Shown one piece after another: positions 45,001 to 48,000 of a DNA stretch of 60,442 nt. Positions within the stretch are counted from its first letter, which is position 1. Every line of letters begins with the position of its first letter. Where the stretch lies: the IMG/VR virus record IMGVR_UViG_2660238269_000009. One strand, written 5' to 3'. Origin of the DNA: a virus (Duplodnaviria; Heunggongvirae; Uroviricota; Caudoviricetes). The position numbers were made by a program.

Positions 45001-48000
45001 CTTACCACAACACGCACACGGCTGTGTCTTTACCCAGCGCGTGTATTTCTCATTAACCCAACGGCGACGTTTAGGCCGCTTCATGAACGATTCAGGAGAC
45101 TCCGGATCAACAGCGATACTGACAACCGTTTTTTTCTGTGGTGGATTTTGTTGCTGGTGGACGTGAAGTGGCAGCGCAATATTTTTTGTGCGCTGCTTCA
45201 GTATGCTGATGGCTGTCTGTTCTCCCGGTACGATGTCACTCTCACGGTATACGGAGCGGATTTTTTCCGCTGGTAATCCCAGCGAACGACGCGCTACTGC
45301 CTCAGGTAATGCATCCACCACCTGATTGCAGGCCGCCCACCAGGATAATTCGGCCAGCGATAATTCACGCTCCTGTGTGCCATTCATTGCGTGACGAATG
45401 ACGTCAATCATCCATGCTGACAGGTTTTGGTGAGCAAGTTGCTCAAGTGATTCGGAGGTCTGGTCACGCAACTGGTTGTCGCAGTGCCAGCACAACACCA
45501 TTGCGCCGGTACCATAACGGTGAATGACGGTTTCACTGTGGTGATAATCGCCGTGTGGCCACTGGCAGGATTTAACATGGCGCAGTAACCAGTCAGACAA
45601 TGCGCCAGCGCCACCAGCAGCACGAATCACTCGTTCGTCGCTGAAAAATGGCAGTAATGATTTATCCTCCGCCAGCGGCTGGCGAACGGCAGGAACGACC
45701 CCGGACGGCAGATTACGCATGCTTTTCGGTTCCGGCTCCACCAGTACCCGGGTATTGTGGAATACCGGCATGGATTCACGGCCCGGCTTAACGATCACCA
45801 GCCCGAGTTCCGGTACCAGAACAGGTCGAAGTAATACCCGCACGTTACCTCCAGATGCGTTGCTGGAATGTGCGGGACGGACGCGGTGGGCGTTCAGAGT
45901 AAGGAAGCCTGACGGAGATTATCCAGTGACGGTAGTCGAGGCTAAGGGCTTTTTTAACCTCGTATCCGCGCCTGCGGTAACACTGAATGAGCCATTCGGC
46001 CTGTTCTTCAGTGCATGGGGGATGCTGGTACCAGTCAGATTTGAATGCGTGAAAACACCGTCTGCGCCTGCTGGCAAAGACGGCTGAATTATCAGAATTG
46101 TGTAATTTGGTATCGTGCGCCATCGGTTGTCTCTGCTGGCGCAGCAGGTGCCAGTTGTTCAGGCTGGTGTGCGAATTGTAAACCAGAATGCTAGGAAAAA
46201 ACAAAACCCGCCGAAGCGGGTTAAGTGCGGGTGCGTTGAGGATGCCTGACACATCAGAGGTGGCGAGGGATTCTCCCCATAAGCGCTAACTTAAGGGTTG
46301 TGGTATTACGCCTGATATGATTTAACGTGCCGATGAATTACTCTCACGATAACTGGTCAGCAATTCTGGCCCATATTGGTAAGCCCGAAGAACTGGATAC
46401 TTCGGCACGTAATGCCGGGGCTCTAACCCGCCGCCGCGAAATTCGTGATGCTGCAACTCTGCTACGTCTGGGGCTGGCTTACGGCCCCGGGGGGATGTCA
46501 TTACGTGAAGTCACTGCATGGGCTCAGCTCCATGACGTTGCAACATTATCTGACGTGGCTCTCCTGAAGCGGCTGCGGAATGCCGCCGACTGGTTTGGCA
46601 TACTTGCCGCACAAACACTTGCTGTACGCGCCGCAGTTACGGGTTGTACAAGCGGAAAGAGATTGCGTCTTGTCGATGGAACAGCAATCAGTGCGCCCGG
46701 GGGCGGCAGCGCTGAATGGCGACTACATATGGGATATGATCCTCATACCTGTCAGTTCACTGATTTTGAGCTAACCGACAGCAGAGACGCTGAACGGCTG
46801 GACCGATTTGCGCAAACGGCAGACGAGATACGCATTGCTGACCGGGGATTCGGTTCGCGTCCCGAATGTATCCGCTCACTTGCTTTTGGAGAAGCTGATT
46901 ATATCGTCCGGGTTCACTGGCGAGGATTGCGCTGGTTAACTGCAGAAGGAATGCGCTTTGACATGATGGGTTTTCTGCGCGGGCTGGATTGCGGTAAGAA
47001 CGGTGAAACCACTGTAATGATAGGCAATTCAGGTAATAAAAAAGCCGGAGCTCCCTTTCCGGCACGTCTCATTGCCGTATCACTTCCTCCCGAAAAAGCA
47101 TTAATCAGTAAAACCCGACTGCTCAGCGAGAATCGTCGAAAAGGACGAGTAGTTCAGGCGGAAACGCTGGAAGCAGCGGGCCATGTGCTATTGCTAACAT
47201 CATTACCGGAAGATGAATATTCAGCAGAGCAAGTGGCTGATTGTTACCGTCTGCGATGGCAAATTGAACTGGCTTTTAAGCGGCTCAAAAGTTTGCTGCA
47301 CCTTGATGCTTTGCGTGCAAAGGAACCTGAACTCGCGAAAGCGTGGATATTTGCTAATCTACTCGCCGCATTTTTAATTGACGACATAATCCAGCCATCG
47401 CTGGATTTCCCCCCAGAAGTGCCGGATCCGAAAAGAAGAACTAACTCGTTGTGGAGAATAACAAAAATGGTCATCTGGAGCTTACAGTGGCCATTCGTGG
47501 GACAGTATCCCTGACAGCCTACAAAACGCAATTGAAGAACGCGAGGCATCGTCTTAACGAGGCACCGAGGCGTCGCATTCTTCAGATGGTTCAACCCTTA
47601 AGTTAGCGCTTATGGGATTCTCCCCCGCCTGGTCTCTTACTCCTCAGGTTCGTAAGCTGTGAAGACAGCGACCTCCGTCTGGCCGGTTCGGATTCGTACC
47701 TCGCAGAGGTCTTTCCTCGTTACCAGTGCCGTCACTATGACGGTTAAACAGATGACGATCAGGGCGATTAGCATCGCCTTTTGCTGCTTCATAGCCTGCT
47801 TCTCCTTGCCTTTCGGCACGTAAGAGGCTAACCTACGTGTGTAGAGCATAGATATGGCCTCAGATTAATGTTAAGCGTCTTGCCGGACGCGTAATGTTAA
47901 CTGGGGCTTTTCTCTATCTGCCTTTTGGTGTTCATGCCTGAGACAGATAGCCTCAAGCACCCGCAGTCATTCTACCCGTTTTAGATTTCTCAGCCAACTT

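Follow-up and report, generated by a model that had tools for sequence, protein, structure and literature searches.

A copy of IS186 has interrupted a hok/mok/sok locus of a lambdoid prophage at the GC-rich hairpin that follows the toxin stop codon, within a 60,442-nt stretch of DNA that was analyzed at its full length and is referred to here as the window. The reading that we consider probable is that IS186 landed at a hot spot and displaced the fbi element and the terminator, such that the stable, inert hok mRNA reservoir would be lost and Sok control kept. From modeled transcripts, we infer that hok may have been functionally inactivated by IS186.

The element, a member of the IS4 family, extends over 1337 bp of the plus strand. 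Its ends and flanks were delimited as follows:

46268..46277: left copy of the target duplication, GGATTCTCCC, 10 bp
46278..47614, plus strand: IS186, transposase on the plus strand, right end toward the hok 3′ end
46278..46300, plus strand: left inverted repeat, CATAAGCGCTAACTTAAGGGTTG, 23 of 23 positions complementary to the right repeat
47592..47614, plus strand: right inverted repeat, CAACCCTTAAGTTAGCGCTTATG, 23 of 23 positions complementary to the left repeat
47615..47624: right copy of the target duplication, GGATTCTCCC, 10 bp

Once flanking bases are counted, the terminal repeats are complementary at 25 of 25 positions. A 12-nt direct repeat, GGGATTCTCCCC, is present at 46267-46278 and 47614-47625, and its outer bases overlap the IS186 termini, so that the duplication can be read as 10-12 bp; taking the 23-bp repeats in their canonical form (CATAAG.../...CTTATG) gives 10 bp (GGATTCTCCC). 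Three differences separate this copy from IS186A of K-12 (one substitution and two 1-bp deletions), and it is 99.9% identical to thousands of IS186 copies. Perfect 23-bp repeats, a length of about 1.34 kb, near-identity to the K-12 copies and a GC-rich duplication of about 10-12 bp all assign it to IS186. The distance from its end to the hok stop codon (47637-47639, minus strand) is 22 nt. The original prediction had described intact inverted repeats, as borne out by the 23 of 23 match, together with an 11-bp duplication, which falls within the 10-12 bp ambiguity, and a position about 23 nt (roughly 20 bp) past the stop codon of a second hok gene, close to the measured distance. The gene is indeed the second hok of the window, the other being located at 8728-8868 on the minus strand.

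The locus next to IS186 comprises a full set of hok/mok/sok components, listed here in the direction of hok transcription:

47969..47997, minus strand: hok promoter-like site, TTGGCT-17-TAGAAT, consistent in position with the 5′ limit of the RF01794 match
47787..47962, minus strand: hok mRNA leader including the Sok target (Rfam RF01794, 117.1 bits, gathering score 59)
47841..47917, plus strand: predicted Sok antisense RNA, by homology to annotated sokC of K-12 (NC_000913.3)
47637..47849, minus strand: mok-like overlapping frame, 70 aa, with a stop codon in common with hok, as annotated for K-12 mokC/hokC
47637..47792, minus strand: intact hok toxin gene, 51 aa plus stop (Pfam HOK_GEF, PF01848, 82.9 bits, cut-off 22)
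47621..47629, minus strand: 5′ arm of the post-stop hairpin, GGCGGGGGA in hok sense, which stays on the hok side of IS186
47044..47063, minus strand (hok sense): terminator-like hairpin and T-run inside IS186, a consensus match only and a candidate end of the interrupted hok transcript
46262..46270, minus strand: 3′ arm of the post-stop hairpin, UCCCUCGCC, beyond IS186 on its far side
46229..46241, minus strand: predicted fbi, CCUCAACGCACCC, complementary to the mRNA 5′ end, GGGUGCUUGAGG, and displaced by IS186
46196..46222, minus strand: intrinsic terminator of the uninterrupted hok transcript, AACCCGCUUCGGCGGGUU followed by a U-run (hairpin from 46222 to 46205)

In the matching database record, the toxin gene is annotated as hokD (WP_000813254.1). 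The mok start was placed at 47849 by alignment to annotated K-12 mokC/sokC, and the RF01794 match, running from 47962 to 47787, models the hok leader as far as the hok start codon; the mRNA 5′ end is at about 47962, and tac is 47951-47962. Additionally, a TTGCCT-17-TAACCT promoter was read directly upstream of the predicted Sok RNA. With the toxin ORF, the overlapping mok, the leader with its Sok target and the antisense gene all present, the locus is a bona fide hok/mok/sok system that lacks only tac and fbi in one transcript. The GC-rich post-stop hairpin was conserved in all of the hok loci that were aligned.

The reconstructed IS-free hok transcript is 420 nt long, with the stop codon at nt 324-326, the hairpin (GGCGGGGGA-GAA-UCCCUCGCC) at nt 334-354, CCUCAACGCACCC, complementary to the 5′ end GGGUGCUUGAGG, at nt 375-387, and the intrinsic terminator at nt 394-411. 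Comparison with an IS-free homolog, which the original prediction had put forward as a check, matched this reconstruction: a precise empty site was found in ST648 and about 3350 other genomes, and the ST648 allele equals the reconstructed site save for one base, located in the Sok hairpin loop. In keeping with the tac/fbi fold-back model of hok mRNA (PMC9841398), RNAfold paired nt 1-12 of the reconstructed mRNA with nt 375-387 at a probability of 0.96-1.0, and this helix between the 5′ end and fbi was present in the MFE structure as well as in the centroid (z = -6.72 for the whole 420-nt molecule). The fold predictions for the window hok mRNA are thermodynamic only; covariation for tac-fbi was sought among the aligned loci, in which tac was invariant and fbi varied little, leaving the pairing without covariation support.

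The IS186 duplication corresponds to nt 339-348 of the reconstructed molecule and lies within the hairpin, so the real transcript would consist of nt 1-348 followed by IS186 sequence. None of hok, mok, the sok promoter, the Sok RNA or the 5′ tac element is altered by the insertion, which splits the GC-rich hairpin and puts 1.35 kb between hok and both fbi and the terminator. Thus, IS186 sits between the stop codon and the predicted fbi and terminator, in agreement with the earlier claim that it lies inside the 3′ region of hok mRNA. In the predicted fold of the interrupted transcript the 5′ end formed a hairpin with nearby sequence (nt 1-13 paired with nt 19-36), and the same 5′ fold was obtained for the fbi-less 'processed' form. 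Pairing of tac and fbi in a contiguous transcript was predicted only with IS186 removed in silico.

We propose that IS186 transposed into a preferred target, a G-run/spacer/C-run palindrome that is the same motif as the conserved post-stop hairpin of hok, and that hok transcripts would run on into IS186. The tac-fbi closure, through which the full-length hok mRNA is kept inert and stable and is shielded from Sok, would no longer form, and the interrupted mRNA would directly adopt the open tac/ucb fold, to be bound by Sok and degraded by RNase III. Since interrupted transcripts would be open and accessible to Sok at once, the locus would stay Sok-repressed. A Sok-repressed toxin gene would thereby be kept, while the long-lived mRNA reservoir for delayed killing of the post-segregational type would be lost, and this is the same state as that proposed for K-12 hokC and hokE. 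For gef/hokC, a presumed disruption of fbi and of processing by IS186 has been described, with a gef mRNA that ends inside the element and is still under antisense control (PMC3562002); in the literature, the gef mRNA end has been placed about 200 nt past the stop codon, in contrast to the terminator-like consensus site of the window (47063 to 47044). The K-12 hok loci have been described as non-functional, with IS elements as part of the cause (PMC7232551). Even without an IS, chromosomal hokA, hokB and hokC reportedly showed neither post-segregational killing nor activation by rifampicin (bioRxiv 10.1101/2025.08.07.668861, citing Pedersen & Gerdes 1999), and since IS-free loci are reported without killing, the phenotypic cost of the insertion may be small. 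The annotated 'hokD toxin' of this pathogen-associated prophage is probably not part of a working addiction or abortive module, which is a useful caution when toxin-antitoxin systems are catalogued by annotation alone.

We then considered the insertion site in relation to other IS186 copies. The original prediction had drawn an analogy to K-12, and the correspondence is closer than was claimed: in both hokC (IS186A) and hokE (IS186B), the insertion point within this hairpin corresponds to that of the window to the nucleotide. Read from the hok stop codon up to the IS186 end, the three sequences are:

Window: UAAGAGACCAGGCGGGGGAGAAUCC, then IS186
K-12 hokC: UAAGAGCAACGGCGGGGAGUGAUCC, then IS186
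K-12 hokE: UAGCCGUUGUGCGGGGAGUAAUCC, then IS186

Beside K-12 hokC and hokE, at least seven further loci carry IS186 at the homologous position, each with a perfect, locus-specific duplication. They include:

RM10410, Qin relBE-hokD: duplication GGATTTCTCCC (11 bp), IS186 oriented as in the window
EH10-18-47 and L73, prophage: duplication GGATTTCTCC, IS186 oriented as in the window
STEC308, prophage: duplication GGATTTCTCC, IS186 oriented as in the window
pTetA_020022, P1-like plasmid: duplication GGATCTCTCC, IS186 oriented as in the window
2024CK-00188, prophage: duplication GGATTTCTCC, IS186 inverted relative to the window
2013C-4991, the window's own hok allele: duplication GGGATTCTCCC (11 bp), IS186 inverted relative to the window

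Identity among the IS186 copies is at least 99.8%, against 5-15% divergence in their flanks, and the two copies of each duplication always agree with the neighboring sequence, which argues for independent, recent insertions. In total, at least nine independent events at hok hairpins were recognized, on chromosomes, prophages and plasmids and in both orientations. Among 5426 complete E. coli genomes, two orientation-specific 300-nt queries retrieved the junction in the window orientation from 858 records (820 genomes) and in the opposite orientation from 954 records (940 genomes). These figures replace an earlier count of 912 records, in which the common 23-bp repeat could admit opposite-orientation junctions. 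At least 1812 of the 8691 IS186 matches in these genomes (at least about 21%) abut hok, a figure that counts copies and not events because many hok-adjacent copies are inherited (e.g., the K-12-type hokC).

The preferred target of IS186 is GGGG(N6/N7)CCCC (PMC6925257), and the window site, GGGG-GAGAAT-CCCT, matches this consensus at seven of eight positions. The only perfect match in the window (8701-8715) corresponds to the same hairpin at the first hok gene, 13-27 nt past its stop codon, where no IS186 is present. By a rough estimate, hok hairpins make up only a few percent of consensus sites, each pattern being expected about 1.2 times in 60 kb. In the closest RefSeq relative, this IS186 copy is the only one. 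The target motif of the IS coincides with a conserved RNA structural element, and as a result hok loci have been interrupted repeatedly and independently at one nucleotide; landing at the hok hairpin, a recurrent hot spot with many independent hits, needs no special selection. More tentatively, and with considerable doubt on our part, the post-stop hok hairpin could be the natural site at which IS186 lands most often in E. coli, more often than the consensus alone would predict. If so, the relationship would be a specific one, with repeated selection of hosts or of elements for the disarming of hok; alternatively, hok 3′ ends would be safe havens from which IS186 rides on hok-carrying prophages and plasmids.

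The principle of IS-interrupted hok loci and IS186 hot spots was reportedly established in K-12 by Pedersen & Gerdes in 1999 and SaiSree et al. in 2001. The phenomenon is thus already known in principle from K-12, and the window case extends this biology and does not change it. What is new here is the host locus, a complete prophage hokD-type system, and a rough population-level frequency of IS186 at hok hairpins; such a figure was not found in the literature searched, including a 2026 survey of Hok (bioRxiv) which makes no mention of IS186.

The window locus belongs with the IS-interrupted hok loci of K-12, in which IS186 lies within about 20 nt past the stop codon, outside the ORF, and separates fbi from hok. 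A close counterpart is hokC (gef)/sokC with IS186A, which has the same hairpin position (GGCGGGGAGUGAUCC, then IS186), the same orientation relative to hok and a 10-bp duplication, and in which fbi and the distal 3′ UTR were likewise left beyond IS186. However, hokC is a different paralog at the chromosomal dnaJ-nhaA site, whereas the window locus resides in a prophage, and it has a perfect GGGG-N6-CCCC hairpin and an intact transposase, where the window has a 7/8 match and an apparently frameshifted one. The insertion of IS186B at hokE/sokE is at the same nucleotide of the same hairpin with a 10-bp duplication (GGAGTAATCC), but there the element is inverted, and hokE is a chromosomal locus beside entD. 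By protein, the window gene falls in the same Hok subfamily as hokD (relF) of the K-12 Qin prophage, and both occupy a slot next to rem/DUF968(ydfU)/Q. Unlike the window gene, K-12 hokD is fused behind relBE and has no leader, mok or sok of its own and no IS186, all four of which are present in the window; the Qin-type loci of RM10410 and EH10-18-47 do have IS186 at this site. The hok/sok system of plasmid R1 resembles the window locus in its Hok/Mok/Sok layout, its RF01794 leader and, once the window locus is uninterrupted, the predicted 5′-3′ pairing. R1 hok/sok is uninterrupted with proven post-segregational killing, whereas the 3′ element of the window locus is separated from hok. Finally, insertions of IS186 at lon involve the same element, the same GGGG(N6/N7)CCCC target logic and recurrent independent hits (PMC6925257, PMC4618355). 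The lon insertions are selected for loss of Lon, in contrast to those at hok hairpins, for which a selected phenotype is not known.

The surrounding prophage was compared to its relatives. Positions 45600-48130 are 100% identical to E. coli 2013C-3181 (NZ_CP027312.1), and the right 47 kb of the window is colinear with this genome at 99.83% identity. The left 13 kb lacks two IS66-family insertions that NZ_CP027312.1 has, so that annotation coordinates are offset there, and an assignment of the window to NZ_CP027312.1:1235041-1295482 was rejected on these grounds. Along the early rightward operon, which is on the minus strand, cro is followed by a YdaT-like gene, replication genes, a Q-family antiterminator, three genes on the opposite strand, hok, IS186, a small hypothetical gene, DUF968, RusA and Q. 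Neither PADLOC nor Pfam gave a convincing hit for those three genes beside hok that lie on the opposite strand. Among about 100 deposited phage records with this hok module, none holds IS186 together with both flanks, and one unannotated 5-kb phage record matches essentially IS186 alone.

Several other explanations were weighed. That target preference simply brought IS186 to a dispensable spot, with no meaningful effect at loci that are not killing modules anyway, is possible, though we lean away from it. A neutral landing would fit the similar frequency of the two orientations (858 versus 954 records), the unchanged hok ORFs beside IS186 (e.g., WP_000813254.1, which occurs with and without it) and the reported inactivity of IS-free chromosomal hok loci in post-segregational killing (bioRxiv 10.1101/2025.08.07.668861). 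However, the insertion takes fbi, the hairpin and the terminator out of the transcript, and the conservation of these cis-elements across divergent hok loci implies function. Moreover, at least 21% of IS186 matches are at hok hairpins as against a few percent of consensus sites, and none of the roughly 100 phage genomes with the hok locus holds IS186 with both of its flanks. The predicted 5′ fold of the interrupted transcript raises a different scenario, in that the open tac/ucb form is the translationally active one (that is, the translatable form in the model of PMC9841398), and loss of fbi might then yield constitutively translatable hok mRNA, more dangerous and checked only by excess Sok. 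We give such de-repression little credence, as the open form is also the one bound by Sok, the sok promoter and RNA are intact, the arrangement is tolerated in hundreds of genomes including K-12, and K-12 gef was reported to be still antisense-regulated (PMC3562002).

An effect on the prophage itself, by which IS186 in the delayed-early rightward operon would block expression of Q and cripple induction, appears unlikely to us. An intrinsic terminator is already present past hok in IS-free relatives, which indicates that transcription toward Q is antiterminated or separately promoted anyway, and the nearest RefSeq relative has extra IS66-family insertions in its tail region and may be defective regardless. 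Such polarity would be consistent with the terminator-like site on the relevant strand inside IS186, with the phage records that have this module without IS186, and with the gene order, which puts IS186 between the replication and early genes and DUF968-rusA-Q. This order upholds the physical separation of the early region from rusA-Q described in the original prediction. An assembly artefact or chance repeat is exceedingly improbable: an independent RefSeq genome (NZ_CP027312.1) and strain N51 have exactly these junctions, the duplication is perfect, the repeats are canonical and the empty site is known (ST648), against which stands only a homopolymer length difference in the transposase that may be a sequencing error. 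Our preferred reading remains a hot-spot landing with probable loss of the inert mRNA reservoir under continued Sok control.

The inverted repeats of the element are intact, but its transposase appears to be frameshifted, which had gone unremarked in the original prediction:

46333..47514, plus strand: InsL-like transposase frame, apparently shifted near its C terminus (canonical stop expected close to 47444)

Specifically, a C-run at 47409-47414 has six C residues versus the usual seven, and the frame shifts after the DDE domain, which is itself intact; the product matches DDE_Tnp_1 and also the NCBIfam model for IS4. The contraction alters the last ~10 residues and lengthens the frame (intact InsL has 370 aa), and it may be genuine or a sequencing error in the homopolymer. 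PGAP labels the transposase as 'frameshifted' in the matching RefSeq record, NZ_CP027312.1, and strain N51 has the same insertion with the transposase intact.

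The hairpin that follows the hok stop codon is a recurrent IS186 target beyond the window. Specifically, IS186 was also found at the equivalent hairpin in the Qin-type relB-relE-hokD loci of E. coli RM10410 and EH10-18-47, which lack the hok leader, mok, and sok. Because these reduced loci were nevertheless struck, the target is the hairpin itself, irrespective of the completeness of the hok system. The window also contains a second potential target, located behind its first hok gene, and a group of genes adjoining the interrupted hok locus:

8698-8868, minus strand, first hok gene (46 aa, MSQKPLKTTV...) with its downstream site
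48133-50289, plus strand, three co-oriented genes with no function assigned (PHROGs 12777, 11490, and 9664)

The sequence GGCGGGGGAGAAUAUCCCCCGCC, 13-27 nt past the stop codon of the first hok gene, was the sole perfect match to the IS186 consensus GGGG-N7-CCCC in the entire 60-kb window, and was unoccupied, with no IS186 present there.

Only one IS186 match was detected in the genome of the closest RefSeq relative, E. coli 2013C-3181 (NZ_CP027312.1), namely the copy at the hok gene homologous to that of the window, and therefore the element may have arrived together with the prophage. Across the right 47 kb, the two sequences differed by 68 mismatches and 11 gaps, while two IS66-family insertions in the tail-fibre/gpJ region of NZ_CP027312.1 were both missing from window positions 1-13200. 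The window thus derives from a related but separate genome.

Within the transposase gene of the window IS186, a C-run at 47409-47414 comprised six residues, versus seven in K-12 and in each of seven other copies compared. Six were likewise present in the independent, inverted insertion of 2013C-4991, another CDC assembly. This run represents either a slippage-prone tract or a homopolymer sequencing artefact.

The three-gene cassette lies on the strand opposite to the early operon and head-to-head with hok. The same cassette was located upstream of hok in STEC308, there with a downstream flank that differed from that of the window. The single cassette gene scanned had no Pfam match, and PADLOC returned nothing convincing for the cassette, which may comprise candidate moron or defence genes.

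Several other features were identified in the window:

~15490-16645, minus strand, ompC-like porin gene (from the annotation of the matching record, NZ_CP027312.1)
37480-37692, minus strand, STnc100 sRNA (Rfam match, 139 bits)
41105-41353, minus strand, three tRNA genes, between a DNA methyltransferase and the late region
55855-55906, plus strand, DicF (Rfam match, 75.8 bits)

The porin gene is placed within the tail cluster, having the minor tail protein L gene on one side and a tail protein gene on the other.
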